A DNA stretch of 56,725 nt from an uncultured Calditrichaceae bacterium (GTDB taxonomy: Bacteria; Calditrichota; Calditrichia; RBG-13-44-9; J075): positions 71,315 through 128,039 of the forward strand of contig CAYYGL010000001.1 in assembly GCA_964471235.1 (NCBI GenBank), read 5' to 3'. Below are positions 1,405-27,147 of the stretch, piece by piece; within the stretch, counting starts at the first letter, position 1, and every line of letters starts with the position of its first letter. The position numbers and the translations under genes are program-made. A model generated the notes under the pieces. The model made no database searches, had not been told where the DNA came from, and saw nothing but the letters and a program-made list of their open reading frames with translations.

Positions 1405-1434
1405 AATATAGAACTAACAGAGACATCAATGCAA
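1405..1434 (-). promoter_or_regulatory. Sigma70-like promoter of the PIN TA cassette
   Basis: Minus strand TTGCAT-N18-TATATT just upstream of the antitoxin RBS. Confidence 0.5.
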
Positions 1435-1887
1435 TTAAAAATTGGCGATACCATAAAACACACACTGTTGCTGTTAATTTTTATTTTCCATCTGTTGCCG
1501 GGACATATCAGTTTGGCGAACCTGGTGCTATGCATTGGCACCGATGGGCATGTCGCTTATGAATCCGCAACGAAACTGGCGACCTGCGCCGAAGCAATTT
1601 CACATCCTTCTCTCCCGGCCGAAACTTCCTTTTCGGCGCTTCACAATGCATTCACTCCAAACCATTGCGGTGAATGTATTGACCTGCCACTCATCATTGA
1701 ATGTAACGAGTATTCCAAAGTTCAATCGCAGCATTCCTCGCTGCGCTCTCTTCAACCGCTCCTCAAAATAAGTCCTGCGGATGATATAACGGCCTTCAAT
1801 GTTCAGCATCGGGTCATCGATATCAACCATTCCGTTTTTCAACATACCTCACTGATTTCTCTTCGTACCACCGTCTTATTGATTTAG
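1429..1887 (+). CDS. Cys/His-rich small protein heading the czc operon (candidate leader ORF, CzcI/DUF2946-like position)
   Basis: N-terminal hydrophobic segment, LVLCIGTDGH, HCGECID, C-terminus LRTTVLLI-stop; lies directly before the TolC gene. Confidence 0.7.
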   Translation: MQLKIGDTIKHTLLLLIFIFHLLPGHISLANLVLCIGTDGHVAYESATKLATCAEAISHPSLPAETSFSALHNAFTPNHCGECIDLPLIIECNEYSKVQSQHSSLRSLQPLLKISPADDITAFNVQHRVIDINHSVFQHTSLISLRTTVLLI

Positions 1888-3410: not shown

Positions 3411-3456
3411 AGTGGGTATTGATAATCCATAAACAAATTTTGAAGGAGATTTTACA

Positions 3457-4467
3457 ATGAGTAACAAACATAAAATAATTCTGGCAATAACACTGTTTGC
3501 CGGAATTATCGTGGGAATGATAATTCATGCGTTGTTTTTTTCTGCCTCCGGTGAACCCCCTGTGGCAAGTGACACCGCTTTTGCGAAAGAGAGCCACAAT
3601 CCGGAAGGGAGCGATGCCGGCGAACATGAAGAGCACGAAAATGCTGTGGTGAAAATCGACGACCGGGAATTGCGGGAATTCGGCATAGAAATCGCAACTG
3701 CCAGTGCGAATACCCTGCAAATTCACACCGATTTAACCGGTGAGATTGTCATCGACCCCGATCGATTGGCGCATATCGTGCCGCGCTTTCCCGGGGTGGT
3801 GAAGGAAGTAAGGAAAAAAATCGGCGACCGGGTGAAAAAAGGGGAGGTGATTGCGGTTATCGAAAGCAACGAAAGCCTGGCGCCTTACGAGGTTCGTTCC
3901 TTGATTGACGGCACGGTGATCGATATGCACATGACCAGAGGTGAGGTAATTGAAGATGCCGAGCACGCCGTGGTGGTCGCAGATTTGAGCTATGTGTGGG
4001 CAAATTTGAGTGTCTATCAAAAAGACCTTCCGCATGTAAAGGTCGGGCAGCCGGTTATTCTCTCTGCCGGTCCGGGAACGAAAGAAGTTAGCGGTACTAT
4101 TTCCTATGTTTCACCGGTGGTAGATGAGGAAACCCGAACGGCAACTGCCCGGGTGGTGTTGCCCAATCCCAACGGCACCTGGAAGCCCGGGTTGTTTGTG
4201 AAAGGGCGAATCATTGTGCAGGAGGTGGAAGCGCCGGTTGTGGTCCCTCGCACGGCAATTGAAATGATAGAAGACCGCCCGGTGGTGTTTGTGAAAACCG
4301 ACGAAGGGTTTAAACCCCAAACCGTGGTGTTGGGGCGGTCAGATGAACGCCGGGTGGAAATCGTGGGAGGACTACACCCCGGTCAACAATACGTGGCGAA
4401 GAACGGATTTACCCTGAAAGCGGAGTTAGGCAAAAGCAGTCTCGGCGAAGGAGGACATGGGCATTGA
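3457..4467 (+). CDS. czcB: RND periplasmic adaptor, CzcB-like
   Basis: N-terminal TM, EHEEHE, lipoyl-like IGDRVKKGEVIA, ISPVVDEETRTATARV, C-terminal GHGH. Confidence 0.9.
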   Translation: MSNKHKIILAITLFAGIIVGMIIHALFFSASGEPPVASDTAFAKESHNPEGSDAGEHEEHENAVVKIDDRELREFGIEIATASANTLQIHTDLTGEIVIDPDRLAHIVPRFPGVVKEVRKKIGDRVKKGEVIAVIESNESLAPYEVRSLIDGTVIDMHMTRGEVIEDAEHAVVVADLSYVWANLSVYQKDLPHVKVGQPVILSAGPGTKEVSGTISYVSPVVDEETRTATARVVLPNPNGTWKPGLFVKGRIIVQEVEAPVVVPRTAIEMIEDRPVVFVKTDEGFKPQTVVLGRSDERRVEIVGGLHPGQQYVAKNGFTLKAELGKSSLGEGGHGH

Positions 4468-4512
4468 TGGGTTCCGAATGGCGAAAGGGATTTGAATTCA
4501 AATAAGAGGGAT

Positions 4513-4878
4513 TCAGGAGATGGGGAGATATAGGATTAAATCCCGGTATTCGAGAGGGTCGGATACTTCCTAAATCAAAAGCAGCTCATCGATTGTTTCT
4601 CCAAGGCTCATCTCGGGGTTTAATTCAAAAATACCAGGAAGATGGTGGTTTTTAGCAAGATGTGTTTTGAGGTGACCTGGCATGGATTTACGATTATTGG
4701 TAACCAGAATGAACGAATTTTTTTCACACCAGAGAAGGATATCAGGGTCCGGAGTTCCCTTTGGGGGTGCTCCGGGGTCACCTATTTTCCAGACAGTCAT
4801 CTCTGGAACCCGTTTAAGCAGTTCGACTCGCAAAACTGGGTTCACGTTTTCATCAAGGAGATACCGGATTTCCATCAC
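4513..4878 (-). pseudogene. DUF5615 PIN-like toxin truncated by an in-frame TAG
   Basis: YLLDENV, TPDPDILLW, LVTNNRKSM; the frame continues past TAG (4570-4572) as EVSDPLEYRDLILYLPIS to TGA at 4513. Confidence 0.75.
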
Positions 4879-5207
4879 TAATGTGAAAGCTCTTTTTCAC
4901 TTTCCTGTTTCAAACGACGCAGCTTTATCACCACCGGAGGCGGATTTTTATCCTGCATACCTCTCATTCGTTTACCAAATGCCAGCCACTCTTTCAAATA
5001 AGATTCGACGGTACTTTTATTGCGCAGATAATAAAGAATGGTGGCATACACTTGTTCAAGCGTCAACGTGGGAAATCGCCTGGCGATCTCTTCCGGTGAT
5101 TGTTCCCGATAAATGTATTCATAAAGGACGGATTCGATGCCGATTCGAGTGCCCTTTATGCGAATATCATCTGAAGCCAGAAAATCGAAATAATCTGCCA
5201 ATTTCAT
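4878..5207 (-). CDS. DUF433 (VapB45-like) antitoxin
   Basis: IRIKGTRIGIE, SPEEIARRFPTLTLEQVYATILYY; coupled to the DUF5615 gene. Confidence 0.88.
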   Translation of the reverse strand: MKLADYFDFLASDDIRIKGTRIGIESVLYEYIYREQSPEEIARRFPTLTLEQVYATILYYLRNKSTVESYLKEWLAFGKRMRGMQDKNPPPVVIKLRRLKQESEKELSH

Positions 5208-5254
5208 ATTTTATCATCTCCTTCACTAAAATTGTCATGACCTTATCTTCTATT

Positions 5255-5283
5255 AATATAACAGGTCGCGCTTAATATTTCAA
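5255..5283 (-). promoter_or_regulatory. Sigma70-like promoter of the DUF433 cassette
   Basis: Minus strand TTGAAA-N17-TATATT. Confidence 0.55.
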
Positions 5284-5378
5284 ATCTCTTTTCCACGAAC
5301 AATTCATGACCATGATAATCAAATAACGAATTAAGGTGATATATGCTTTATCAATAGACCACAAACAGGAGTATCGAT

Positions 5379-8300
5379 ATGAACAAAATCATTCAGTTTG
5401 CCTTACGAAGCCCATTGTTAATGATTGTATTGGGCTTATTGGTGATGGCGGGAGGCTATTACAGCTACCGGCAGTTACCCATAGATGCCTTCCCCGATGT
5501 CTCGCCCAACCTGGTGCAGGTGTTTACCGAAACCGAAGGGCTGGCACCGGAGGAGGTGGAAAAATATGTTACTTATCCGATTGAAGTGGTAATGAACGGA
5601 CTGCCCAATCTGAAATCCATCCGCTCGGTCTCCAACTTCGGATTATCGGTAGTGAACATCTACTTCGAGGATGGCACCGATATTTACTTTGCCCGCCAAT
5701 TGGTCAATGAGCGTCTCCAGGAAGCGCGGGAACAAATTCCGGAGGGATTCGGCGAACCGGCAATGGGACCCATCTCCACTGGTATGGGATTGGTGTTGTT
5801 TTATTACCTGGAAGATGAGGAGGGAAAATATAGTCTGGAAGAACTGCGCACCATCCAGGACTGGCTGATTAAATTTCACCTGCAAACCGTGCCCGGAGTG
5901 ACCGAGGTGCTGGGTATCGGCGGCTGGGAAAGACAATATCATGTAGTGCTCGATCCGTACGCCCTGCTTCGCTACAATGTGACCACCGGTGATATTCTGG
6001 AAACCATTGAGGAGAATAACCTGAACGTGGGCGCCCAGTTTATTGAGAAAAATTCGGAAGAGTTTATCGTGCGCTCCGTGGGTCTGGCATCCACCATTGA
6101 AGACATTGAAAACATTGTGGTAAAAGCGGAAGATGGCACCCCGATATACTTAAAACAATTGGCTGATGTAAAAATCGGTGGCGCCATTCGCCGGGGAATT
6201 CAGACCCGTAATGGAATTGGTGAAGTGGTGGCGGGAATGGTGATCAAACTTTTCGGGAGTAATTCTTCCACGGTTATCGGGGCGGTGGAGGATAAGTTGA
6301 GTGAAATTAACCGCATTCTTCCCCCCGGCATTAAAATTGTACCATACTACGAACAAAAAACCCTGGTGGAAGCCTGTGTAAAAACCGTGACCGATGCCTT
6401 AAAAGAAGGTATCATTCTGGTGGTGATCATTTTGATGCTGTTTCTGGGCGCCATTCGTCCCAGCCTGGTGGTTGCCATCGCCATTCCCTTCTCGGTATTG
6501 TTTGCCATCATTGGAATGCGGTATTTTGGGATTTCCGCAAACCTGATGTCCTTCGGCGGATTGGCAATTGCCATTGGAATGATGGTGGATGGCGCCGTGG
6601 TGATTGTAGAAAATATGGACCGGATGTTGCGGGAGTCCGACCCCGATGAACCGCGAATCCACGTGGTAGCGCGCGCCTGTAAAGAAGTGGTACGACCCAT
6701 CGCCTTTGCCGTGATCATCATCATCATCGTTTTCCTACCCTTGTTTACCCTGCAAGGGGTGGAGGGGAAAACATTCCGCCCCTTAGCTTATACCATTGCC
6801 CTGGCAATGACCGGCTCCCTGGTATTTACCATTCTCCTGGCGCCGGTGCTGTCTTTTCTGCTGATGCGCCGGCCCAGGAAGTCAAAAGAAGCCGGCTCTA
6901 AAGGCGGTGAACACCAAATCTGGATTGTCCGGCTGCTGTTAAAAATCTATGACCCGCTGGTCACTTTTTTCGTGAAAAAGAGAGCTGTTGCAGTAATCCT
7001 GGCGGCAGTGTTAATTCTCATCGGTGCGCTGATTTACCCCCGGTTGGGAACCGAATTTACCCCCACCCTTCAAGAAGGCACCATCGTGCTGCGGCTGACC
7101 ATGGCACCATCCATTGCCCTGGAGGAGAGTAAGCGGATCACATTACTTGTGGAACGCCGGGTGATGAGGATCCCGGAAGTCACCGGGGTGGTCACTCGCA
7201 TTGGGCGCGGCGAAGTGGGAGCACACACCGACCCGGTGAACAGCGCCGAAATGTATGTATTGCTAAAACCCCGTGAGGAATGGCGTAGCGCGCAAACCCA
7301 GGCGGAAATTGAGGAGATTATCCGTAAGGAAGTTGGCAATGTGCCCGGGGTGCTCACCAACCTGACCCAGCCCATCCAGATGACCGTGGATGAACTGTTG
7401 GAAGGGGTGCGGGCGGAATTAGCGATTAAGTTGTTCGGAGATGAGATTGATGTGCTAAAGGAAAAAGCAAATGAGATTGCCGCCGTCATCCAGCGAATTC
7501 CGGGAGCGGCAGACGTGCAGCCGGACCAGATCAGCGGTACGCCGCAGTTGTTGATAAAAATCAACCGTCATGCCATCGCCCGATATGGGATTAACGTATC
7601 CGATGTGCAGCGGGTTATTCGTGCTGCCGTCGGTGGTGAGACGGCAGGTCAGATATTCGAAGGCATTCGCCGTTTTGATATCTATGTGCGTTTTGCCCCG
7701 CAATACCGGGATTCCAAAGAGGCAATTGGCGAGATTCTTATCGAAGCGCCCAACGGTGCTAAGGTTCCTCTGGCACAATTGGCTGCCATCGAGGAGATTG
7801 TCGGTCCCCGGCAAATTACCAGGGAGAATAACCAGCGGTTTATCACCGTGCAATGTAATGTGGTCGGCAGGGACATCGGTTCGTTTGTAGCGGAAGGCCA
7901 GCGGGCGATTGAGGAAAACGTCAATTTGCCGCCCGGTTACCTGGTCACCTGGGGCGGACAATTCCGCTTGCAGCAGGAAGCCAACAAACGGCTTAGCGTG
8001 GTGGTGCCCATTACCCTGTTTATCATCTTCATCTTACTGTTCTCCAGTTTTAACTCGCTGAAGAATTCCTTATTAATCCTGTTAAATATTCCTCTGGCAT
8101 TGGTGGGTGGAGTGGTTGCCCTGTGGATTAGCGGGCAAAACCTTTCCGTTCCCGCCTCAGTAGGATTCATCGCCCTGTTCGGTATTGCCCTGTTAAACGG
8201 AATTGTTCTGGTTACCTATATCAATCAACTCCGAATGGAAGGGCTTCCGGTTGATGAAGCCTCTATCCGGGGCGCCGGTTTAAGGCTGCGCCCGGTGTTA

Positions 8301-8495
8301 ATGACCGCACTGGCGGCGGCCCTGGGGATGATTCCACTGCTCTTTTCCAGCGGCATCGGCAGCGAAGTGCAGCGCCCCCTGGCTACGGTGGTGGTAGGCG
8401 GATTGTTCACCTCTACAGTGTTAACCCTGTTGGTGATTCCGGCATTGTATAAATGGTTTGCCATAGATGTGGACTCGGAAACGGGCGTCAGGTAA
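5379..8495 (+). CDS. czcA: HME-family RND permease, CzcA-like
   Basis: LPIDAFPDV, GMMVDGAVVIVEN, GVEGKTFRPLA, RLRPVLMTA, SEVQRPLATVV; 1038 aa. Confidence 0.93.
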   Translation: MNKIIQFALRSPLLMIVLGLLVMAGGYYSYRQLPIDAFPDVSPNLVQVFTETEGLAPEEVEKYVTYPIEVVMNGLPNLKSIRSVSNFGLSVVNIYFEDGTDIYFARQLVNERLQEAREQIPEGFGEPAMGPISTGMGLVLFYYLEDEEGKYSLEELRTIQDWLIKFHLQTVPGVTEVLGIGGWERQYHVVLDPYALLRYNVTTGDILETIEENNLNVGAQFIEKNSEEFIVRSVGLASTIEDIENIVVKAEDGTPIYLKQLADVKIGGAIRRGIQTRNGIGEVVAGMVIKLFGSNSSTVIGAVEDKLSEINRILPPGIKIVPYYEQKTLVEACVKTVTDALKEGIILVVIILMLFLGAIRPSLVVAIAIPFSVLFAIIGMRYFGISANLMSFGGLAIAIGMMVDGAVVIVENMDRMLRESDPDEPRIHVVARACKEVVRPIAFAVIIIIIVFLPLFTLQGVEGKTFRPLAYTIALAMTGSLVFTILLAPVLSFLLMRRPRKSKEAGSKGGEHQIWIVRLLLKIYDPLVTFFVKKRAVAVILAAVLILIGALIYPRLGTEFTPTLQEGTIVLRLTMAPSIALEESKRITLLVERRVMRIPEVTGVVTRIGRGEVGAHTDPVNSAEMYVLLKPREEWRSAQTQAEIEEIIRKEVGNVPGVLTNLTQPIQMTVDELLEGVRAELAIKLFGDEIDVLKEKANEIAAVIQRIPGAADVQPDQISGTPQLLIKINRHAIARYGINVSDVQRVIRAAVGGETAGQIFEGIRRFDIYVRFAPQYRDSKEAIGEILIEAPNGAKVPLAQLAAIEEIVGPRQITRENNQRFITVQCNVVGRDIGSFVAEGQRAIEENVNLPPGYLVTWGGQFRLQQEANKRLSVVVPITLFIIFILLFSSFNSLKNSLLILLNIPLALVGGVVALWISGQNLSVPASVGFIALFGIALLNGIVLVTYINQLRMEGLPVDEASIRGAGLRLRPVLMTALAAALGMIPLLFSSGIGSEVQRPLATVVVGGLFTSTVLTLLVIPALYKWFAIDVDSETGVR

Positions 8496-8837: not shown

Positions 8838-9179
8838 ATGAAGCATATTATTGCTTATATCAAACCGCATAAGTTGAGCCAGGTAACCCTGGAATTGCAC
8901 AAGGTGAAAGGGTTAACCGGCATGACCGTGCTGGATGTGCGCGGCTTCGGTCGCACCAAAGCCAAAGACGCGCCGCATCGGATTGTGGAAGATTTGGTTG
9001 ATTATGTTCCCCATGTAAAAATCGAGATTTTCTGCCGGGATGAATTGGTAGAAGAAATCGTTGCCACCATTCAGCGGGAAGCTCACACCGGTTTGCGTGG
9101 CGACGGCAAGATTTATATAACCGGCTGTGAGGACGCTATCCGGATTAGCAGCGGGGAGAGAGGGGAAGTGGCAATCTAA
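8838..9179 (+). CDS. PII-family signalling protein associated with czc
   Basis: IIAYIKPHKL, GMTVLDVRGFG, AHTGLRGDGKIYI, AIRISSGERG; AGGAG RBS. Confidence 0.92.
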   Translation: MKHIIAYIKPHKLSQVTLELHKVKGLTGMTVLDVRGFGRTKAKDAPHRIVEDLVDYVPHVKIEIFCRDELVEEIVATIQREAHTGLRGDGKIYITGCEDAIRISSGERGEVAI

Positions 9180-10277: not shown

Positions 10278-10547
10278 TCCCTTTGCGAAACAATTAGTTT
10301 GATTTGGCAAAAAAATGAACTTATGTTTTTTGAAACGGACGCATGAGCAATTGCAAGTCATTCTCCCCGAAGGGAAAAAATAGGAGAGCCGCGAATATGT
10401 GCCCGGAACACGCACAGCCCTGAAAGAGCAACATCATCCCTTATTATTTCGCTCGTTCAGGGCAACGGATCGTGTATGGTGCAATTTGTCATGGGTCTTT
10501 TGGAACAGTTGATCTCTTTGGAAAAAACATAGATGAAGGAGAATACA

Positions 10548-11648
10548 ATGAAATCAAACACCTTTTTCTTGATATTCGGTTGTCTTATCATCCTGGCTCA
10601 AATAGGACTGGAGGTAAGGGGTGAAAATCCGGCAAAAACCACCGGCAAGCAACTCTTTCTCACCAACTGCGCCGCCTGCCACGGTGCCAATCTGGAAGGG
10701 AATCCTCCCGCTTTCCCATCCCTGAAGAATGTGAAAGAGCGGCTCTCCCGGGAACAAATTCGCACCCAGATAATTAATGGCAAAAACGCCATGCCATCAT
10801 TCAGGCATTTGTCGCCGAAGGAGATTGATGCGATTATTGACTATGTGTTAGGAGAAGCCAATCCCGTCGTAGAGAGCACACCGCTGCCACCGGAGAAGCA
10901 GGGCGAACTTATCTTTAAGGGAACCTGCAACAGTTGTCATCGTGCTACGGTGACCGATCCCCGGCCGGGCGGGTTACCCTTTCGTCATCACATGGAACCG
11001 GCGCCGCTTGCGGGTGCCACCAAACGCTTTAGCCGGGAAGAGTTCAACTGGATTCTGGATATGGGACCGGGATACATGCCCTCGTTTTCCAACCTGGGCG
11101 AAGAAGACCGGGAGGCATTGTGGCGTTATCTCAAAACCCTGGAGGGTAAAGGCGAACCGCGTGGGATAACCATGATGCAGATGCACTGGAGAATGATAGG
11201 ACGGGGCGGCATGATGGGTCGAGGGGGCATGATGGGGATGATGGGGAGAAGGCACCGGGGAATGGGATGGCGAGGACGCTGGCGACAGGAAGGTCGGGTA
11301 AACAAACCGACGAAGGAAATGATTGCCGAAGCCATTCGGGTACATATTCAGCTCGACCAAAAATTAAACAACGGTTTTTATGTGTTGCAAGACCCACAAA
11401 CCGGTAAGACCCTGCGGCTGACATTGAAAAAAATTCACCATGACCGGGTTATTCAAACCATTGACGGTTTTCTGGTGATGGGCGTGGATATGGTTTCAAC
11501 AAGCGGGGAGCGGTATGATGTGGATTTTTTCTTACAACAGCAGGGAGACGAACTACTGGTTTTCCAGGCGATGATTCATAAGGTTAATGCCCAACCCCGC
11601 TACACCTGGAAATTAAAGGATGGGTACTGGGAGCAGGAGGGGAAGTGA
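10548..11648 (+). CDS. Exported di-haem c-type cytochrome with a Met/Gly/Arg-rich linker and an uncharacterised C-terminal domain
   Basis: Signal peptide; CAACH..AMP and CNSCH..YMP haem domains; AAGGAG RBS favours a start at 10548. Confidence 0.85.
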   Translation: MKSNTFFLIFGCLIILAQIGLEVRGENPAKTTGKQLFLTNCAACHGANLEGNPPAFPSLKNVKERLSREQIRTQIINGKNAMPSFRHLSPKEIDAIIDYVLGEANPVVESTPLPPEKQGELIFKGTCNSCHRATVTDPRPGGLPFRHHMEPAPLAGATKRFSREEFNWILDMGPGYMPSFSNLGEEDREALWRYLKTLEGKGEPRGITMMQMHWRMIGRGGMMGRGGMMGMMGRRHRGMGWRGRWRQEGRVNKPTKEMIAEAIRVHIQLDQKLNNGFYVLQDPQTGKTLRLTLKKIHHDRVIQTIDGFLVMGVDMVSTSGERYDVDFFLQQQGDELLVFQAMIHKVNAQPRYTWKLKDGYWEQEGK

Positions 11649-12101
11649 AATAAGCACTTCTAAACAACATGGAAAAAAGGAAAGTCTTCCCACTTCGCCG
11701 TGGACCGATTAGGGATATGATTTTTTCCGGATCGCAACGGAACTTGTAAATCCCGCGGCTTTACATCTCTAACGGGGAGAGAGTTATGAAAATCCTTCAG
11801 AATTGTTTTGAACAGGTCATTCATATACTTTCCTTTTTGTAAAGAAAATATATATCAATATTTTCCTTTTAACAAGGAAACTATTGACAGGGTGTAATAG
11901 GTTGAGGGCATCGTTAACAAAGTTTTATATGACAAAATTAATTCTTATATCTCCCGGTGATTGAATTCGTTATCTTCTGTTACAGATAAAAAGCAGAACG
12001 TTGTAACATAGATTGGGTTATGGAATCCAATATATTTTGGGTGTGAATTGAATTTTGCAAACGGGTGTTAAAAGCTTACCACATAACAGGAGGAGATTCT
12101 C

Positions 12102-12488
12102 ATGAGTTACTATTTTTCCCGTAAATTAAATATGGGCTTTGACGCAGCCATTGATAAAGTGACCGAAGCCTTAAAAGAGGAGGGGTTCGGCATACTGACC
12201 GAAATCGATGTGAAAGAAACGCTGAAGAAGAAGCTGGATGTGGATTTTCAACCGTATCGGATTTTGGGTGCCTGCAACCCGCCTTTTGCGTATCAGGCAT
12301 TACAGGCAGAGGATAAAATCGGCACCATGCTGCCCTGCAATGTGATTGTTCAGCAAACCGGGGAAAACGAAGTGGAAGTGGCTGCGGTAGACCCCATTGC
12401 CTCCATGCAGGCAATTGAAAATCCGAAATTAGGTGAAGTAGCACACCAGGTTCAGGAAAAATTAAAAAAAGTGATTGAGAGTTTGTAG
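12102..12488 (+). CDS. DUF302 domain protein
   Basis: EEGFGILTEIDV, YRILGACNPPFA, IGTMLPCNVIV. Confidence 0.92.
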   Translation: MSYYFSRKLNMGFDAAIDKVTEALKEEGFGILTEIDVKETLKKKLDVDFQPYRILGACNPPFAYQALQAEDKIGTMLPCNVIVQQTGENEVEVAAVDPIASMQAIENPKLGEVAHQVQEKLKKVIESL

Positions 12489-12503
12489 AACCCCGGAGGA
12501 AAG

Positions 12504-12737
12504 ATGATGGGTCATGATATGTGGGGATGGGGATGGATGTGGTTCGGGTGGGTGTTGTGGTTAATTCTTATCGCAGTGATCATTTGGGCGGTCGTGAGGT
12601 TCACCAGCAGCGCTTCCGGACGGTCACATTCTACGCCACCTCAGGAGAGCGCCCTGGACATTCTTAAAAAGCGGTACGCCCGCGGGGAAATTTCCCGGGA
12701 AGAGTTTGAACAGATGAAAAAGGATTTAATGGAGTGA
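12504..12737 (+). CDS. SHOCT-domain small membrane protein
   Basis: Trp/Gly/Met-rich N-terminus, one TM, ESALDILKKRYARGEISREEFEQMK. Confidence 0.9.
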   Translation: MMGHDMWGWGWMWFGWVLWLILIAVIIWAVVRFTSSASGRSHSTPPQESALDILKKRYARGEISREEFEQMKKDLME

Positions 12738-12899
12738 GAAAACGGGAGTCTATTTTTTCTTCACTGTTTAACAGATATGAGGGGATTTTTTCTCGCACCG
12801 TAAGATAGATTATAGCATTTACCGGGAAAAACACCTATATTGCTCCGTATTTGAAATGTACAGAAACCGGCACATGTTTTTAGAAGGCAGCAGTAGCCA

Positions 12900-13289
12900 A
12901 TGACTAAAACTCGTATCCATGACACCTTTTCCCGTCTACTGGTAATACTCATCTTAGCCGCTACATTTCATTTCCAGGCGCCGCTTGCCAACCGGGCAAT
13001 GGATAAGAAATGCTGCGTGAACTCGGAGATGGCATGCTGCAAGGGTGACATACCCGGGAGAACCGTCTGCTGCATCGAACACACTGAACACGATTCGGAG
13101 AATGCCGCCCCGATTCGGGCAATTCCCCATTCAAATCAATCCTTAACAAAACTTCTTGCCGCTGGTCTTAATCTGCCCCCTACACTTTACCAAATTCCGC
13201 AAATTGCACTAAAAACCAATCTTTCAACTGATTTTTTTCTCCACCAGGATAATCATCTCTATTTGCAGAACTCCTCTCTTTTGATTTGA
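12900..13289 (+). CDS. Cys-rich small protein heading the cus operon (candidate leader ORF)
   Basis: Hydrophobic N-terminus, three CC pairs, C-terminus HLYLQNSSLLI-stop; lies directly before the TolC gene. Confidence 0.7.
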   Translation: MTKTRIHDTFSRLLVILILAATFHFQAPLANRAMDKKCCVNSEMACCKGDIPGRTVCCIEHTEHDSENAAPIRAIPHSNQSLTKLLAAGLNLPPTLYQIPQIALKTNLSTDFFLHQDNHLYLQNSSLLI

Positions 13290-13456
13290 TCCTCCTCTCG
13301 CTATACAGGCGTACTATATCCAATCGGCTTCCCCGGGCTTTCTTTTTCCAGGGGAAATAGCCGTCTTGATGGAACTCCTCTGTTTCCTTTACTGGAAATG
13401 CAAAACGGATTTCCCAATCGGTAACCAGTTTAGTTGATTTACCAGAGAGGACTGCT

Positions 13457-14734
13457 ATGCAACGTCTGACCATAATAATATTTTTTTGTCTGGCGTCAAT
13501 GATGCCGACATTCGCCCAATCCGGTTTTCCGAGTCCCGACTCAACAACTCCCGTTCCATTGGAAACATTTATTCGGGAGGCATTGGAGAAGAATCCCATT
13601 ATCCATTCCGCGGAGCAACAGTACAACGCGGTTTTAAGCCGGGTACCGCAGGTTCGTTCGCTGGATGATCCCATACTCAGCTACACCCATTGGTTTTCCA
13701 GTGTGGAAACCCGGGTGGGTCCCATGCAGAACTCGCTACGTCTCTCGCAGCGTTTCCCCTTTTTCGGCAAACTGCGGCTCAGGGGAAAAATGGCGGAGCA
13801 AGATGGGGAGGTTGCCGGGCAACACCACCATGCCATCCGCCGTGATGTAATTTTCCGGGTAAAAATTACTTATTTCGATCTCTATCGCATCGACCGATCC
13901 ATCGCCATCCTCAGGGAATACCGGGAATTGTTGAAACGCTTTCAGAAAGTTGCCGCCCGTAAATACGCCACCGGCATCGGCACCCGGGTGAATGTGCTGA
14001 AAGCGCAGGTGGAAATTGCCGCACTTCAAGAACAGATAATAAACTTTACGCAAATTCGTGAAGGAGCAGTAGCACGGCTGAATGCCCTCCTCGGGCGGGA
14101 TGAAACACACTCCATTGCCCAGATTACTGAAATTGATACATCCCTGTTAGCCTTGACCGAGGCGGAAATACTGGAAGCCGCTTTTGCCGCTCGGGAGGAA
14201 TTACAGTCAGCGGAAGCGCAGATCCGCAAGGCTCAATTTGCCATTCGCCTGGCAAAACGGAATTTTTTTCCGGATGTTACCCTGGCGCTATCCTACACCA
14301 CCATCCCCTCCGGAAGAACCCCGGCAATAGACCGGGGAAAAGACCCCTGGGCGCTGCAAGTGGGTATAAATCTGCCTATCTACCTGGGAAAACGAAAGGC
14401 TGCGGTGGAGGAAGCCCGAGCCCTGCGGAATTCGCAGCAACTCTATTACCGGAATCTCAGAAACGAGGTGGTGGCGGAAATCCGGGAACTCCATGCCCGA
14501 TTAAAGGCATCGGAACAGACGATGGTTCTGTACCAGCGGCAGTTGCTTCCGGACGCCCGGCAAACTCTCCAATCGGCACTGTCTGCATATCAAACCGGCA
14601 GCCTGGATTTTCTTTCCCTGTTAGACAGTGAGCGGATGCTGCTTCAATTTCGCCTGGCGTATGTGGAGGAACTATCGGATTACCGTCAGATAGCCGCTGC
14701 TCTGCAAAGAGCCATGGGCAGGGACTTACCCTGA
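13457..14734 (+). CDS. TolC-family outer-membrane protein of the Cus-like system
   Basis: Signal peptide, ALEKNP, LDDP, SQRFPFFGKL, YQTGSLDFLSLLDS. Confidence 0.9.
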   Translation: MQRLTIIIFFCLASMMPTFAQSGFPSPDSTTPVPLETFIREALEKNPIIHSAEQQYNAVLSRVPQVRSLDDPILSYTHWFSSVETRVGPMQNSLRLSQRFPFFGKLRLRGKMAEQDGEVAGQHHHAIRRDVIFRVKITYFDLYRIDRSIAILREYRELLKRFQKVAARKYATGIGTRVNVLKAQVEIAALQEQIINFTQIREGAVARLNALLGRDETHSIAQITEIDTSLLALTEAEILEAAFAAREELQSAEAQIRKAQFAIRLAKRNFFPDVTLALSYTTIPSGRTPAIDRGKDPWALQVGINLPIYLGKRKAAVEEARALRNSQQLYYRNLRNEVVAEIRELHARLKASEQTMVLYQRQLLPDARQTLQSALSAYQTGSLDFLSLLDSERMLLQFRLAYVEELSDYRQIAAALQRAMGRDLP

Positions 14735-14769
14735 AACAGTTTCAGTAAACAAAACGACGGAGGTTTACG

Positions 14770-16401
14770 ATGTATCGAATAAAAACCTTTTTAAATGCCA
14801 TCAGCATAATAATCGTATCGATACTTTTACTGAGCGCCTGTGGAGATACCAAATCACCGCCACAGACGATCGGTATTTACCAGGTGTCATTCATAACCAT
14901 TCCCAATCCCCCAACAGTTGGGCTGAACACTTTTCGGGTTCGCGTTTGGAATGATGCCGGTGATCCGGTATCCGAGGCTGAGGTTCATCTGCATTACTCC
15001 ATGCCAGCCATGGCGGGGATGCCGGCAATGGGAGATGAAGCCCGCCTTGAAGAAACCGGCAAGGGGATTTACCAGGCACAGGTGGACCTCTCCAGCGGCG
15101 GAGAGTTCCCCTGGGATGTGCGCCTGGAAGTGTTGAAATACCAACAGGTGTTGTTCATTTCCCAATGGCAGGTAATTCCGGGGAATGAAGGAGTTGCCTT
15201 TGTTTCCGGTGAAACCGGTCAGGAAAGGGGTATGGGAGGGAACAGCTATTACACCTGCACCATGCATCCCTCGGTAAAGCAAAAAGACCCTGGAAAATGC
15301 CCAATTTGTGCGATGGACTTGGTGCCGGTTAGCAGGGCTGGTGAAAACCCGGCTGTTAGTGGTACAGAAACGCCGGTTGCCATCGTCAACATCCCACTGT
15401 ATCAGCAGCAGCTTATCGGCGTGCAACTGGATACGGTGAAGCTGCGCGGGGCCCATAAGACCATTCGAACCATCGGGCATGTGGCGTATGATGAAACCCG
15501 CCTGGCAACGGTGAATCTGAAGTTTTCCGGCTGGATTGAGAAATTGTACGTGGAATATGCCGGTGAGTTTGTGGAGAAAGGGCAACCGTTGTTCGAAATT
15601 TACAGCCCGGAAGTGGTTTCCACCCAGGAGGAGTATCTGCAGCTTCTTAAAGAAAGCGCTCGAATATCCCGGAGTAGGCGCAGTGTAGGAACCGACGGAT
15701 CGGATGGCGCCGGTGATAGCCAATCCCTGCTCCAATCTGCCCGGCAGCGGCTTCGCTTGTGGGGCATTTCCCCTGATCAAATACAGGAAATCGAAACCAC
15801 GGGTGTTCCCAAACTGACCATCACTTTTTACTCACCGATTCGCGGTTATGTTGTAAATAAAAACGCCCTGGAAGGCAGCCATGTGGTACAGGGAAAAGAC
15901 CTTTTCACCATTGCGGATTTATCACGGGTGTGGGTGCATGCCCAGGTGTATGAATACGAACTGCCGTTTGTTCGCCCCGGGCAGTCAGCGCAGATTCGCC
16001 TCTCTTATGCCCCGGAGGTGAATTATACCGGTGTGGTGAATTATATCTATCCCACCCTGAACCCCCAAACCCGCACCGCTACTATTCGCCTGGAATTTCC
16101 CAATCCCCGGTTAAAGCTGAAACCGGATATGTATGCAGACGTGGAGATAGCTATTGATTTGGGGGAACAATTGATTGTTCCGGCAACAGCGGTATTGAAC
16201 ACCGGTCGTCGCCAATTGGTGTTTGTAAACCGGGGCAGGGGGCGTTTTGAACCGCGGGCAATCAATGCCGGCGCAAAGGTCGGGGAGTTTTACGTAGTGC
16301 ATAAGGGTTTGGAAGCTGGTGAGGTGGTGGTCAAATCGGGCAATTTTCTCATTGATGCCGAAGCGCATGTGCAGGGTGTGTTGCAAATGCTGGAAAATTG
16401 A
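14770..16401 (+). CDS. cusB: CusB-like adaptor with an N-terminal YtkA/FixH-like domain and a heavy-metal-binding motif
   Basis: LLSAC lipobox, YSMPAMAGMPAM, YTCTMHP..GKCPICAMDL, GWIEKLYV, YSPEVVSTQEEY, SGNFLIDAE. Confidence 0.88.
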   Translation: MYRIKTFLNAISIIIVSILLLSACGDTKSPPQTIGIYQVSFITIPNPPTVGLNTFRVRVWNDAGDPVSEAEVHLHYSMPAMAGMPAMGDEARLEETGKGIYQAQVDLSSGGEFPWDVRLEVLKYQQVLFISQWQVIPGNEGVAFVSGETGQERGMGGNSYYTCTMHPSVKQKDPGKCPICAMDLVPVSRAGENPAVSGTETPVAIVNIPLYQQQLIGVQLDTVKLRGAHKTIRTIGHVAYDETRLATVNLKFSGWIEKLYVEYAGEFVEKGQPLFEIYSPEVVSTQEEYLQLLKESARISRSRRSVGTDGSDGAGDSQSLLQSARQRLRLWGISPDQIQEIETTGVPKLTITFYSPIRGYVVNKNALEGSHVVQGKDLFTIADLSRVWVHAQVYEYELPFVRPGQSAQIRLSYAPEVNYTGVVNYIYPTLNPQTRTATIRLEFPNPRLKLKPDMYADVEIAIDLGEQLIVPATAVLNTGRRQLVFVNRGRGRFEPRAINAGAKVGEFYVVHKGLEAGEVVVKSGNFLIDAEAHVQGVLQMLEN

Positions 16402-16425
16402 AGGGAGAAATAAGTTGAGAAAAGA

Positions 16426-17034
16426 TTATGGAAAGAATACCAATTTGATGAGCATGGCTAACATAGCTAACAGGAGGCCAAATACCAATTTTTGGCCGGT
16501 TTCTAATTTTGCAATCCGTTCACTCAGCGATGCCGCAACATTTCCGACGTACTCAATAAGTTCCACACGCAAATTCGCCAGGTCAGCTTTGGTAGCCATA
16601 TTTTCTTTAATATCATCGATTTCTACCTGTATTTTTCCAAGGTCGGCTTTGGTAGCCATATTCTCTTTAATGTCATCAATTTCCACCTGTATTTTTCCAA
16701 GGTCACCCTTGGTAGCCATATTCTCTTTAAGATTATCATTTTCTACCTGCAGTCTTCCAAGGTCACCCTTGGTAGCCATATTTTCTTCGATATTTTCCAC
16801 CCGGCTGCGCAAATCGGTTATATCGCCCCGTAACATAGCCACTTCCTCACGGGTAGCCATGTTTTTTTCGATATACCTTTCAAGCCCTTCTAAACGGGTT
16901 TCTAATCTGACAATGGCGGCAGCCGGCGAACGGCGCACCTCTTCCATATCTTCTAACGTTAATTTGAGATGCTCCTCTACCGCCTTTTTGACAAGCTCTT
17001 TCAGACGTTTTTCATCAACGTTCATGGTAGCCAT
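16426..17034 (-). CDS. Coiled-coil protein with MATKxDL repeats and a C-terminal TM anchor (CCDC90/DUF1640-like)
   Basis: Repeats ENMATK(G/A)DL, hydrophobic tail; own promoter TTGAAA-N17-TATATT at 17060-17088. Confidence 0.75.
   Translation of the reverse strand: MATMNVDEKRLKELVKKAVEEHLKLTLEDMEEVRRSPAAAIVRLETRLEGLERYIEKNMATREEVAMLRGDITDLRSRVENIEENMATKGDLGRLQVENDNLKENMATKGDLGKIQVEIDDIKENMATKADLGKIQVEIDDIKENMATKADLANLRVELIEYVGNVAASLSERIAKLETGQKLVFGLLLAMLAMLIKLVFFP
16573..16800. repeat. 60-bp coding tandem repeat (about 4 units)
   Basis: GGTAGCCATA recurs at 16591, 16651, 16711 and 16771 (degenerate copy at 16852). Confidence 0.9.
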
Positions 17035-17107
17035 GTTCGTCCCTGCATCTTTTAAATTAAATATAACGGTTCGCTAATTTTATTTCAACCGAATTTCGAG
17101 GATTGGT

Positions 17108-20100
17108 ATGATTGACAAACTAATTGAACTCAGCGTCAGAAACAAACTTATCATCTTCCTGTTGATGGCAATTGCCACTGCCTGGGGAATTCGCTCTTTG
17201 TACAACACCCCGCTGGATGCCATTCCGGATTTATCCGATGTGCAGGTGATTATCTTCACCGAATGGCAGGGGCGCAGCCCGGATATCATCGAGGATCAAA
17301 TAACCTATCCCATTGTGACCAGCCTGCTTTCCGCCCCGAATGTGCAATTTGTGCGGGGGCAGTCGTTTTTCGGGCTTTCCTTTGTGTATGTTATTTTTGA
17401 AGAAGGTACCGATATGTACTGGGCGCGCAGCCGGGTGTTGGAATATATGAACGAAATCGAAGCGCAGCTTCCGGATGGCGTTACCCCGACCCTGGGACCG
17501 GATGCTACCGGGGTGGGCTGGGTCTATGAATACGCCCTGGTCGATACCACCGGTCGCTGGAATCTGGCAGATTTGCGATCTTTCCAGGACTGGCACCTGA
17601 AATACTGGCTGGAGGGAGTGCCCGGGGTGGCGGAAGTGGCTTCGGTGGGCGGATTTGTCAAACAATACCAGATTGAGGTGGACCCCAACAAACTGTTAGC
17701 TTACCACATCCCCCTGAAAAAGGTTCTTCAGGCGGTGCGCAACAGCAACAATGATGTGGGCGGCAGGGTGATTGAGATGGCATCCACTGAATTTATGCTG
17801 CGGGGCAGGGGATACATCAAATCCATCGCCGATATTGAAGAAATTGCCGTGGCAACTGATGGAAAAGGCACTCCCGTGCTGATCCGGAATATCGCCAATG
17901 TCCACCTGGGACCGGATATGCGCCGCGGCATTGCCGAGTTAGACGGCAAAGGAGAAGCCGTGGGCGGCATTGTGATAATGCGCTACGGCGAAAATGCCCT
18001 GCGGGTGATCGAACGGGTGAAAGAAAAAATTCGCCAGGTAACAGCCGCCCTGCCGCCGGGTATGAAGATTATTCCCACCTATGACCGTTCCGATCTCATC
18101 GAACGGGCAATTGACACCCTGAAGGAAAAGCTAATCGAAGAATCGATCATCGTCAGCCTGGTGTGCCTGCTGTTTCTCTTCCATTTTCGCAGCGCCCTGG
18201 TGGCGATTTTGACCCTGCCGATTGCCATCATCTTCTCTTTTATCCCCATGTATTACATGGGCTTGACCTCCAACATCATGTCTTTGGGAGGTATTGCCAT
18301 TGCCATTGGCGCCATGGTGGATGCGGCAATCGTGATGATTGAAAACGCTCATAAACGGCTGGAGCATGCCCGGGAGGGCGGAAAAGAACTGAGCGCTGCC
18401 GAACATTTCCGGGTCGTCATTGCAGCAGCTAAAGAAGTGGGAAAACCGCTCTTCTTTTCCCTGCTGATCATCACCGTATCATTCATCCCGGTGTTTACCC
18501 TGGAAGCGCAGGAAGGGCGGTTGTTTAAACCACTGGCATATACCAAAACCTTCGCCATGTTTTTTGCATCGTTTATCTCGGTTACCCTGGTACCGGTGTT
18601 GATGGTGCTCTTGATTCGCGGGAAAATTGCCCCGGAGAGCAAGAATCCCGTCAACCGACTTCTCATTCGGCTGTATCACCCGGTTGTTACCCTGGTTCTC
18701 CGGTTTCGGAAGACCACCATTCTGGCGGCTGTCATCCTGCTGCTTGCCACCATTCCTATTTTTAACCGCCTGGGAACCGAATTCATGCCACCGCTCAACG
18801 AGGGCTCAATCCTTTACATGCCCACCTCCATCCCGGGGATGCCGGCATCGGAAGCGAAAAAGATTTTGCATACCCAGGACAAAATTCTGGCAACGTTTCC
18901 GGAGGTGGAGCGAGTATTCGGCAAAATCGGGCGGTCCCGTACGGCAACCGATCCCGCCCCGTTAAGTATGGTCGAAACCACCATCACCCTGAAACCGAAA
19001 AAACTATGGCGCCCCGGCATGACCTGGGAGAAGCTGGTAAAAGAGATGGATCAAAAGCTAAAATTTCCGGGTATGGCAAATATCTGGTGGATGCCCATCC
19101 AGACCCGCACCGAGATGCTGACCACCGGTATCCGCAGCAACCTGGGCATCAAGGTGTTTGGAGATGATTTAAAGGAGATAGAACGGATTGCCGTGGATAT
19201 CGAACAGGCGCTGCAAAATTTTCCGGGCACCCGGAGCGTTTTTGCGGAACGATCATCCGGCGGCTATTTTGTGGATTTTCATATCCGCCGGCATCAAGCG
19301 GGGCGATACGGGCTGACAGTGGGGGATGTGCAGAACATCATCCAGACTGCCATCGGGGGTATGAATATCACCCATACCGTGGAAGGAAAGGAACGCTACC
19401 CGGTGAATGTGCGGTATCCCCGGGAACTGCGCGATGATATCGATCGCCTGAAGCGGGTGCTGGTGCCGACACCAACCGGTGCCCAGGTGCCCATTGCCCA
19501 GCTGACGGATATTAGCCCCACCACCGGTCCACCGATGATTCGCAATGAAGACGGCGCCAAAGTGGGGTTTGTGTTTGTGGATGTGAAAGAAAAAGATTAT
19601 GCTAAATACGTTCGTCAGGCACAGGAATACATCTACCGTAACGTCAACATCCCACCCGGCTATACCCTTGCCTGGGCGGGCCAATACCAATACCTGCAAC
19701 GGCTTCGGGAAAAACTGACCGTGGTGATACCGCTAACCCTGTTTATCATTTTTATGCTGTTGTATTTAAATTTTCGTTCTGTTTCCAAATCGTTGATCGT
19801 GCTACTCTCGGTGCCGTTTTCACTGGTGGGCGCCTTCTGGCTGTTGTGGGTACTGGGCTACAACACCAGTGTGGCGGTCTGGGTGGGGATTATTGCCCTT
19901 GCCGGGGTTGCCGCGGAAACCGGGGTGGTTATGATTGTTTACCTGGATGAATTTTACGACCGATACCGCGCCGAGGGGAGGATGAAAACGCTGGCTGATC
20001 TGTATGATGCGGTCATCAAAGGTGCGGTGCAACGGGTGCGCCCCAAAATGATGACCGTGACGGCGATTATGGCAGGTTTGCTGCCCATCCTGTGGTCAAC

Positions 20101-20272
20101 CGGCACCGGGGCGGATGTGATGAAGCGCATCGCAGCACCTATGGTAGGCGGTATGATGACTTCCACCATTCTGACGCTGGCAGTCATTCCGGCAATTTAC
20201 ACCATCTGGCGGGAGTGGCAGCTTAAACGGGAGATGGGAGTGGCGCCAGGGTCTTCAGAAACATCGGAGTAA
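17108..20272 (+). CDS. cusA: Cu(I)/Ag(I) RND permease CusA
   Basis: PLDAIPDLSDVQVI, GPDATGVGWVYEY, AMVDAAIVMIEN, and the Met triad contexts LYMPT, LSMVET, WWMPI. Confidence 0.95.
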   Translation: MIDKLIELSVRNKLIIFLLMAIATAWGIRSLYNTPLDAIPDLSDVQVIIFTEWQGRSPDIIEDQITYPIVTSLLSAPNVQFVRGQSFFGLSFVYVIFEEGTDMYWARSRVLEYMNEIEAQLPDGVTPTLGPDATGVGWVYEYALVDTTGRWNLADLRSFQDWHLKYWLEGVPGVAEVASVGGFVKQYQIEVDPNKLLAYHIPLKKVLQAVRNSNNDVGGRVIEMASTEFMLRGRGYIKSIADIEEIAVATDGKGTPVLIRNIANVHLGPDMRRGIAELDGKGEAVGGIVIMRYGENALRVIERVKEKIRQVTAALPPGMKIIPTYDRSDLIERAIDTLKEKLIEESIIVSLVCLLFLFHFRSALVAILTLPIAIIFSFIPMYYMGLTSNIMSLGGIAIAIGAMVDAAIVMIENAHKRLEHAREGGKELSAAEHFRVVIAAAKEVGKPLFFSLLIITVSFIPVFTLEAQEGRLFKPLAYTKTFAMFFASFISVTLVPVLMVLLIRGKIAPESKNPVNRLLIRLYHPVVTLVLRFRKTTILAAVILLLATIPIFNRLGTEFMPPLNEGSILYMPTSIPGMPASEAKKILHTQDKILATFPEVERVFGKIGRSRTATDPAPLSMVETTITLKPKKLWRPGMTWEKLVKEMDQKLKFPGMANIWWMPIQTRTEMLTTGIRSNLGIKVFGDDLKEIERIAVDIEQALQNFPGTRSVFAERSSGGYFVDFHIRRHQAGRYGLTVGDVQNIIQTAIGGMNITHTVEGKERYPVNVRYPRELRDDIDRLKRVLVPTPTGAQVPIAQLTDISPTTGPPMIRNEDGAKVGFVFVDVKEKDYAKYVRQAQEYIYRNVNIPPGYTLAWAGQYQYLQRLREKLTVVIPLTLFIIFMLLYLNFRSVSKSLIVLLSVPFSLVGAFWLLWVLGYNTSVAVWVGIIALAGVAAETGVVMIVYLDEFYDRYRAEGRMKTLADLYDAVIKGAVQRVRPKMMTVTAIMAGLLPILWSTGTGADVMKRIAAPMVGGMMTSTILTLAVIPAIYTIWREWQLKREMGVAPGSSETSE

Positions 20273-27144: not shown

Positions 27145-27147
27145 GAT

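Follow-up and report, generated by a model that had tools for sequence, protein, structure and literature searches.

The leader-like gene and its efflux operon

A window of 56,725 nucleotides (nt) from an uncultured Calditrichaceae bacterium (GenBank assembly GCA_964471235.1, contig CAYYGL010000001.1, positions 71,315 to 128,039 of the forward strand) was analysed, with attention to a small open reading frame (ORF), P0001, that stands directly ahead of a heavy-metal efflux operon of the resistance-nodulation-division type (HME-RND). A first-pass annotation had proposed this ORF as the leader of a candidate metal-sensing translational switch, in which its last codons act as an anti-Shine-Dalgarno (anti-SD) sequence for the ribosome-binding site (RBS) of the next gene, coding for a TolC-family outer-membrane efflux protein (OEP). 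Judged by its conservation, the 129-aa ORF is a real gene, member of a rare conserved family under selection at the peptide level. The features of the leader, of the spacer and of the Cus/Czc-type operon, which consists of OEP, membrane fusion protein (MFP) and RND genes, are as follows.

12900-13289, plus strand: leader-like ORF P0001, 129 aa, ending in NSSLLI with a TGA stop (from the sequence)
13011-13073, plus strand: codons of the Cys motif CC-x6-CC-x9-CC, residues 38-58, presumed metal-binding site (sequence and alignment)
13251-13289, plus strand: codons of the conserved C-terminal motif, NHLYLQNSSLLI, and stop (31-locus comparison)
13272-13279, plus strand: anti-SD box 1, TCCTCTCT, codons -6 to -3, paired with the SD in the minimum free energy (MFE) fold; window-specific
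13290-13299, plus strand: post-stop pyrimidine tract TCCTCCTCTC, which includes anti-SD box 2, TCCTCTC, at 13293-13299
13308-13315, minus strand: apparent inverted remnant of a hairpin core, AGTACGCC (element 13308-13321), 19-26 nt after the stop
13326-13362, plus strand: predicted local spacer hairpin GGCTTCCCC...GGGGAAATAGCC (MFE fold, without comparative support)
13376-13381, plus strand: third TCCTCT box, with the UUUCCUUUAC segment at 13385-13393; predicted partners of the SD once the stop region is masked
13444-13451, plus strand: SD of the OEP gene, AGAGAGGA, ending 5 nt before the ATG at 13457-13459
13457-20272, plus strand: HME-RND efflux operon, Cus/Czc-type OEP-MFP-RND (domain matches)
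13457-14734, plus strand: OEP/TolC-family gene (domain matches)
14770-16401, plus strand: CusB-like MFP with YtkA and HMBD domains (domain matches)
17108-20272, plus strand: CusA/CzcA-family RND pump (TIGR00914, 1204 bits)

The export-like N-terminus of the ORF, its three CC pairs (residues 38-39, 46-47 and 57-58) and its NSSLLI end, as well as the TCCTCTC just past the stop and the 167-nt spacer between the leader stop and the OEP start, had been described in the first-pass annotation and were all found in place. In the AlphaFold2 (AF2) model of P0001, having a predicted local distance difference test score (pLDDT) of 62 overall, the N-terminal hydrophobic helix (residues 3-38) is the only element predicted with confidence; two strands (44-48 and 55-59) and two helices (110-115 and 118-128) were also predicted, while residues 63-79 and 91-109, with pLDDT below 50, form a linker predicted to be disordered. 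The Atlas model of the leader gave a pLDDT of 0.50, and no globular domain was predicted in either model. As for an N-terminal Sec signal peptide, helix 3-38 is predicted by AF2 in a form that does not distinguish a cleaved signal from a membrane anchor. The predicted complex between residues 34-129 of P0001 and the CusB-like MFP scored 0.00, a value that weighs neither way.

Conservation of the peptide and of the stop-proximal RNA

A word-indexed search returned a single homologue of P0001, P0002, with 62% identity, and an exhaustive profile search of 1.84 billion representatives retrieved 19 proteins (clusters) at E <= 0.001. These proteins, minus one of 914 aa and with the addition of P0002 and P0003, make up a family alignment of 20 rows. 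Members were found in 6 of the 86 genomes of the window's own phylum, Calditrichota, and in 26 of 167 genomes of a second, neighbouring phylum; G244 and G248, two unpublished genomes of the second phylum, were excluded from the subsequent counts. A metagenome scan with a 4-row alignment contributed two loci. Among the sequencing runs listed for the window's own locus there is one DNA run, which may be the source sample, and no RNA run. The set used at the DNA level comprises 31 non-redundant loci, having dropped L038 (weak, without the motifs), L037 (cut by a contig end), L011 (the same as L023) and L017 and L021 (from unpublished genomes). Identity of the homologues spans from 62% down to about 16%, and a chance ORF is excluded by conservation of this kind in the protein.

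The first gene downstream of the leader is OEP-like in 19 of the 31 loci and codes for a CusB-like adaptor (MFP) in 3, with 5 left unresolved; in 3 others an extra gene (for a 151-aa unknown protein or a GT2 glycosyltransferase) is followed by OEP and CusB, and in a single locus the first gene codes for a secreted protein with a type IX secretion system (T9SS) tail. These assignments were made by inspecting the N-termini, with Pfam confirmation for the window and three extended loci only. On these counts the family heads HME-RND operons almost without exception, lying on the same strand as the operon with intergenic spacers of 87-274 nt.

The N-terminal hydrophobic helix is conserved, with a Q-F-F-x-P..N signature in the family alignment, and is followed by a Cys block of the form CC-x(5-6)-M-x-CC-x(8-9)-V-CC. 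C57, C58 and L128 are invariant in the 20 rows, and C39, C46 and C47 occur in at least 90% of them. Apart from the Cys motif, the best-conserved part of the protein is its tail, namely the last 12 residues, with the consensus N-(Q/K)-(L/R)-Y-K-x-L-(S/A)-x-F-L-I-stop. Across the 31 loci, Leu at position -2 is found in all, Ile at -1 in 28 and Tyr at -9 in 27, and no member continues past the LI (or LN) end. The invariant Leu is written with six different codons, indicating that selection acts on the peptide and not on the RNA. Conservation of the C-terminal motif had been suggested beforehand as a check on the leader hypothesis, and the FLI-stop or LLI-stop ending is indeed preserved across the set. 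The approximately 55 residues that separate the Cys block from the tail are poorly conserved in sequence and yet fixed in length: counted from the C-terminus, the last Cys pair is 69-73 residues away (median 71) in 44 of the 46 distinct sequences, the two exceptions being a truncated protein of 90 aa and L010, with 66 residues.

Conservation extends into the RNA that follows the stop codon. Pyrimidines make up at least 7 of the 8 bases right after the stop in 16 of 25 family loci, compared with 4.5% of 3135 long-ORF ends of this genome, and many of these tracts resemble the anti-SD of 16S rRNA (CCUCC, CACCU). A hairpin with the core GGG(Y/A)(G/T)(A/T)AGT(R)CGCCC comes after the stop in 26 of the 31 loci and begins 7-14 nt past it in 24 of these 26. 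Since it is found in all three frames relative to the ORF, the hairpin is not coding. Modest covariation was seen in it: both partners vary in 5 of 8 pairs, and the score observed was reached by 13 of 500 shuffles. A strict version of the pattern gave four matches in five genomes, three adjoining family ORFs and one within an unrelated coding sequence. Rfam gave no match at E <= 1 in eight loci, and a single chance-level snoRNA match in the window (12000-14000). A ribosome with the stop codon in its A site covers roughly 10 nt past the stop, so that the pyrimidine tract would be concealed by a ribosome dwelling there, with the hairpin directly at its edge.

The remaining two of these 26 loci show rearrangements at this point. 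In the metagenome locus L012 an insertion of about 130 nt (L012:2875-3005), resembling a miniature inverted-repeat transposable element (MITE), with inverted repeats at its ends and a duplication of its target TTAGAGG, parts the post-stop tract from the hairpin, and in L018 the first 40 nt past the stop hold a partial tandem duplication of the 5' part of the hairpin (AAGGGCTACGCCCGTAGGGTGAAGTACGCCC).

The window holds an atypical member of the family, in which the place of the hairpin is taken by the extended pyrimidine tract and by two further TCCTCT boxes. The octamer listed at 13308-13315 occurs once in the window, considering either strand, at the distance from the stop that is usual in the family; it has the appearance of a degenerate hairpin copy in inverted orientation, or could hint at an element that is read as DNA. 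The middle of the spacer is not conserved across the family, and this speaks against a promoter or operator conserved within it. Scanning for sigma-70-like promoters found none on the plus strand of the spacer and none upstream of the ORF either, so the scan tells nothing in this phylum. The hairpin DNA was also compared by eye with consensus sequences for a sigma-54, extracytoplasmic function (ECF) sigma factor or MerR-type operator, and none fitted. Nothing resembling an intrinsic terminator was found in 12400-13700, and only 10 of the 26 family hairpins are followed by at least four T in 7 nt; the hairpin is thus not a consistent terminator.

The proposed switch rests on base pairing between the last codons of the leader and the RBS of the OEP gene. 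The perfect 8-nt complement of the SD at 13272-13279 is present, the MFE fold computed with RNAfold pairs the two segments and also contains both spacer hairpins named in the first-pass annotation, and in the MFE and ensemble folds the SD is paired with 13272-13279 at a probability of about 0.9-1.0. The fold energy is modestly better than that of shuffled sequences (z = -1.78; 11 of 200 shuffles are as good). Among 2328 putative starts of this genome, 1.6% are preceded, within 178 nt, by a perfect complement of at least 8 nt to their RBS window. TCCTCT occurs 16 times on the plus strand of the 56.7 kb, and three copies (13272, 13293 and 13376) fall within 110 nt just upstream of the SD; by a Poisson estimate, at least three in 185 nt have a probability of about 2e-5. 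Anti-SD complementarity in the window is therefore in part, and somewhat, beyond chance. The SSU (16S) rRNA is absent from the assembly, and SD use was therefore judged from the composition upstream of starts: SD-like purine-rich motifs are strongly enriched, with AGGAG upstream of 16% of putative starts and of 1% of controls, which makes SD-based mechanisms plausible in this genome.

The same pairing fared less well in the family. Across the 31 loci, the codons that hold box 1 (-6 to -3) differ in the residue encoded as well as in the codon used, so the last codons are not a conserved anti-SD. Where a downstream start could be assigned (25 loci), the duplex between the 14 post-stop nt and the locus' own RBS averaged -7.7 kcal/mol, against -6.9 kcal/mol with the RBSs of other loci (permutation p = 0.058), and the pairing probability of the stop region with the RBS, computed in a wider folding context, exceeded the shuffle mean in 14 of 25 (sum 88.9 vs 61.6). 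Perfect upstream complements of the RBS window were scattered in position and amounted to at least 8 nt in 2 of 25 loci (genome background 1.6%), at least 7 nt in 3 of 25 (6.8%) and at least 6 nt in 11 of 25 (26%). Complements of the own RBS right after the stop are found in L002 (7 bp), L012 (9 bp), L027, L010 and L009. The further idea that a ribosome sitting on the stop frees the SD was not borne out by folding, given that with 13270-13300 masked in silico the SD still pairs, at a probability of 0.74-1.0, with 13385-13393 or 13376-13381. The switch as originally conceived could exist in this genome; it is no trait of the family, and equilibrium folding lends it no support.

Related leader-like families, proposed mechanism and alternatives

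Tails of the same kind were found in two further families. Members of HYC_CC_PP (NF047658) above the NCBIfam cut-off of 28 bits occur in both phyla; they are small CutF-like proteins of the Fibrobacterota-Chlorobiota-Bacteroidota (FCB) type, of about 125-145 aa, with an N-terminal hydrophobic helix followed by CC motifs, standing as first gene before OEP or RND genes. Their C-termini read ...PPxPKQDIxILxQSFLI-stop, ...LQTYLL-stop or ...LPLLI-stop, and the distance between the last CC and the C-terminus is 69 residues in 5 of 6 members, against 66 in the other. In addition to helix, CC motifs and operon position, HYC_CC_PP and the P0001 family resemble each other in this hydrophobic tail, (F/Y/L)L(I/L)-stop, placed some 69 residues past the last CC, which was observed here and is not a curated feature of HYC_CC_PP. 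Comparison of the two by hhalign gave two short and separate matches, one over the N-terminal 50 columns (probability 83%, with a 3-row HYC_CC_PP profile) and one over the C-terminal 27 columns (85%, with an 8-row profile). On the contrary, the P0001 family is without the HYC and PP motifs, has N-x-L-Y-K at the position taken by PP before the tail, and carries its three CC pairs in a tight CC-x6-CC-x9-CC block. A literature search found no paper naming HYC_CC_PP. After the stops of the HYC_CC_PP genes in L042, L067 and L069 we observed hairpins or strings with the same GUAC-containing core (GGGAAAAGTACG; GTAACGTACGG; CCTGTAAGCTAGTTGTACAGG), and in view of them the stop-proximal element may be older than the leader family.

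The other family is represented in the window itself, ahead of a second efflux operon.

1429-1887, plus strand: second leader-like ORF, P0022, 152 aa, with a hydrophobic N-terminus and the end TTVLLI-TAG
2046-8492: second OEP-MFP-x-RND operon, with OEP at 2046-3407, MFP at 3457-4464, an ORF of unknown function at 4682-5272 (plus strand) and RND at 5379-8492

The stop of P0022 lies 158 nt upstream of this operon and is followed by a pyrimidine-rich tract. Its metal motifs, LCIGTDGH...HCGECID (family pattern LCIGxDGH...HCGxCxD), are of the Cys/His type, and the family occurs in 31 of 86 Calditrichota genomes. In 13 of 15 loci read the C-terminus is (V/I)LLI-stop, the other two being ILLT and IILI; the distance from the end of the second metal motif to the C-terminus is 64-68 residues in the 14 of the 15 loci where it could be measured, and at least 6 of the first 8 post-stop bases are pyrimidines in 14 of 15. 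The (F/L)LI-stop tail and a spacer of approximately 64-70 residues are thus common to three families with different metal motifs. A P-II-like gene (8838-9176) follows the second RND operon.

Among described systems, the nearest in layout are CutF of Rhodobacter capsulatus and CruR of Bordetella pertussis. As in the leader family, each is the small, exported-looking and poorly structured first gene of a metal operon, with a Cys motif and a conserved C-terminal motif at conserved spacing, and conserved motif spacing and poorly structured proteins are recurrent in the published accounts (PMC9973294; bioRxiv 10.1101/2025.02.05.636593; PMC9426467). In DUF2946 proteins, to which CutF and CruR belong, the spacer is, as here, reported to be constant in length and free in sequence, and its lengthening by five residues impaired regulation; the output of CruR, over an intergenic region of 162 nt that is comparable with the 167 nt of the window, is Rho-dependent (PMC9426467). 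The leader family differs from both in its vicinal CC pairs, which replace CXXC or CxxxC, in the absence of a RAPP or PP motif and in a conserved motif that ends exactly at the stop; the spacing amounts to about 60-71 residues, compared with 45 in CruR (PMC9426467). According to the published survey, CutF-like genes are mostly upstream of OEP genes and common in Bacteroidota, and they were collected by requiring PP among the last 15 residues of the C-terminus (PMC9973294), a filter that would have removed the present family, which has no PP. The earlier description of an analogous system with a different C-terminal motif is, given the absence of RAPP and PP, the fixed spacing and the position in the operon, a fair reading. 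No mention of the (F/L)LI-stop tail was found in the passages searched of PMC9973294, whose supplementary cluster logos S5 and S6 may already show it for the Bacteroidota. Rho is encoded in this genome. TnaC-type leaders are a further term of comparison, as they stall at their own stop codon and mask an adjacent Rho site; the leader family shares with them a conserved peptide that ends at the stop and a C-rich tract directly after it, and differs in having no sequence similarity to them.

From these comparisons we give about even weight to the reading that the ORF is a cis-acting metal-sensing leader of the efflux operon, and a proline-free, distant relative of the HYC_CC_PP and CutF/CruR types, in which the (F/L)LI-stop tail would replace the proline motif and the output would pass through a stop-proximal RNA module. 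In such a mechanism, the N-terminal hydrophobic helix would target the nascent chain to the membrane. With the ribosome at the stop, the 12-residue tail (...Y-K-x-L-S-x-F-L-I) would lie at the peptidyl-transferase end of the exit tunnel, and the three CC pairs, 71-91 residues away through a disordered spacer of fixed length, would have just emerged beyond tunnel and translocon. Metal bound to the CC pairs might then alter the time that the ribosome dwells on the last codons or on the stop, and the dwelling ribosome, covering about 10 nt past the stop (i.e., the pyrimidine tract) and abutting the structure that follows, would set the expression of the pump genes. Two output routes can be envisaged. 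First, the anti-SD-like tract could be withheld from the downstream RBS. Second, Rho could be denied its loading site beside the stop, as in CruR and TnaC. Of all this, the gene and its conservation, the fixed spacing, the shared tail, the place in the operon and the conserved post-stop RNA are observed, and export, metal binding, pausing and output route are inferred. The window would carry a variant of this arrangement, having a degenerate post-stop hairpin and, in its place, three TCCTCT boxes complementary to the OEP SD.

Several observations weigh against this leader reading. P0001 has no known arrest motif, with neither RAPP nor any Pro in its last 15 residues. It matched no Pfam family at E <= 0.01 and no NCBIfam model; PF11162 (DUF2946) was matched by none of the 20 members at E <= 10 and by nothing in the whole genome at E <= 0.1, and the HYC_CC_PP model gave no match to P0001 at E <= 1 and matched 1 of the 20 members, at E = 0.14. 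The conserved helix residues Q-F-F-x-P..N are uncommon in a plain signal peptide and would fit a membrane protein that is stable; a degron or a docking helix would be an equally good reading of the conserved, hydrophobic C-terminus. On the RNA side, the canonical plus-strand hairpin is absent from the window, the C/G ratio of the intergenic region is 1.18 (1.27 in the ORF) with a rut signature that is weak beyond the first 12 nt, and the family-wide pairing results and the masked folds given above point in the same direction. Moreover, the authors of the CutF work deem such long spacers unfavourable for simple stem-loop melting (PMC9973294).

The best placed of the alternatives, in our judgement less likely than the leader, is a stable trans-acting small envelope protein, membrane-anchored or periplasmic, which would bind metal via the CC pairs as a CzcI-like pump modulator or a metal chaperone, with the C-terminal helix as docking or sorting element and the post-stop hairpin merely stabilising or ending a monocistronic message. 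The confidently predicted N-terminal helix, with its conserved residues, favours such a protein, and no CusF-like gene was found among the scanned ORFs of the operon region. The gene also heads a pump operon, like czcI of Cupriavidus metallidurans, whose product, by description, is likewise a small protein without the proline motif, encoded directly upstream of czcC; CzcI is described as a periplasmic protein that quenches CzcCBA activity, i.e., acts on the pump itself, which would set it apart from a cis-acting leader (PMC10127602), and is counted by the CutF authors among the CutF-like proteins (PMC9973294). Against an envelope protein stand a linker fixed in length and free in sequence, the lack of any predicted globular domain, an end past which no member continues, an RNA element whose distance from the stop matches the leading edge of the ribosome, and a tail and a similar spacer that recur in families with different metal motifs.

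That the switch operates here exactly as first proposed, with 13272-13279 and/or 13293-13299 sequestering the OEP SD until a ribosome on the LLI-stop frees it, seems to us improbable. The 8-nt perfect complement that places this start in the top 1.6% of the genome, the clustered TCCTCT boxes, the near-complete pairing in the folds and the own-RBS complements after the stop in five other loci speak for it; the position of box 1 in variable codons, the SD that stays paired when the stop region is masked, the weak family tests and a z-score of -1.78 speak against it. Finally, chance features can hardly be credited, nor can recoding of the stop by selenocysteine, readthrough or a frameshift running into the spacer, because the protein is conserved and the first nine loci, which all had TGA followed by T and a downstream hairpin, gave way to a mix of stops in the 31 loci (TGA 22, TAA 7, TAG 2), on which selenocysteine or release factor 2 (RF2)-specific recoding was dropped, while readthrough or a +1 frame extension was rejected on account of a hairpin lying in three frames, 7-14 nt from the stop, and of downstream frames that, as read in the sequences of the first loci, close quickly and differently in each.

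Returning to the cis-acting leader, the part of this that is already known should be kept apart from what appears to be new. Metal-sensing upstream ORFs, often before OEP genes and including those of Bacteroidota, have been described (PMC9973294), and the ORF is not a new kind of system. What appears new is a proline-free family outside the published PP filter, the tail and the spacer of about 64-70 residues common to three families, and the conserved post-stop pyrimidine tract with its GUAC hairpin. CutF/CruR leaders are a recent discovery, and their definition has up to now rested on stalling motifs that are proline-rich or RAPP; a proline-free family suggests that the class is wider than current definitions. 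Since the tail is shared with HYC_CC_PP, which has its own prolines just upstream, and with the P0022 family, it could be the working part in the FCB lineages. More tentatively than for the leader itself, and falling short of even weight, we propose that (F/L)LI-stop may be a proline-independent arrest or termination-pause module of at least three exported Cys/His-rich leader families (the P0001 family, HYC_CC_PP and the P0022 family) in Calditrichota and the neighbouring phylum. With the ribosome on the stop, a ruler of about 64-70 residues would bring the metal site to just beyond tunnel and translocon, and the pyrimidine tract and sequence-conserved GUAC hairpin would form the RNA module at the leading edge of the ribosome. 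If true, this would be a new class of transmembrane metal-sensing riboregulation for RND pumps. The compact, testable cassette of peptide tail, spacer of about 70 residues, stop, pyrimidine tract and conserved hairpin would lend itself to studying arrest at termination and the readout by RNA of ribosome position, and could explain how efflux pumps are regulated in phyla without an adjacent metal regulator.

Genes around the operon

In agreement with the first-pass annotation, which had noted no dedicated metal regulator next to the operon, a scan of the ORFs of at least 90 aa in 1-35 kb of the window turned up no transcription regulator of the metal type. The nearest regulators seen, 5-8 kb downstream of the pump operon (25363-28620, minus strand), are a Ser/Thr protein kinase carrying a PEGA domain and a sigma-54 activator carrying a GAF domain, and nothing ties the pair to the operon. 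The leader's promoter is presumed to be in the gap 12738-12899, where no sigma-70-like site was found.

The gap between adaptor and pump (16402-17107) holds either an unannotated ORF on the plus strand (16319-17077) or one on the minus strand (16429-17034) with a weak DUF2730 match. ORFs of about 200-250 aa thus lie between adaptor and pump in both RND operons of the window; the two on the plus strand (16319-17077 and, in the second operon, 4682-5272) matched no Pfam family, and the operon of L048 likewise holds a 209-aa ORF without a family. Directly upstream of the leader, on the same strand, are a DUF302 gene (12102-12488) and a gene with a SHOCT domain (12504-12737), and this pair is preceded by a di-haem cytochrome c gene (10533-11648).

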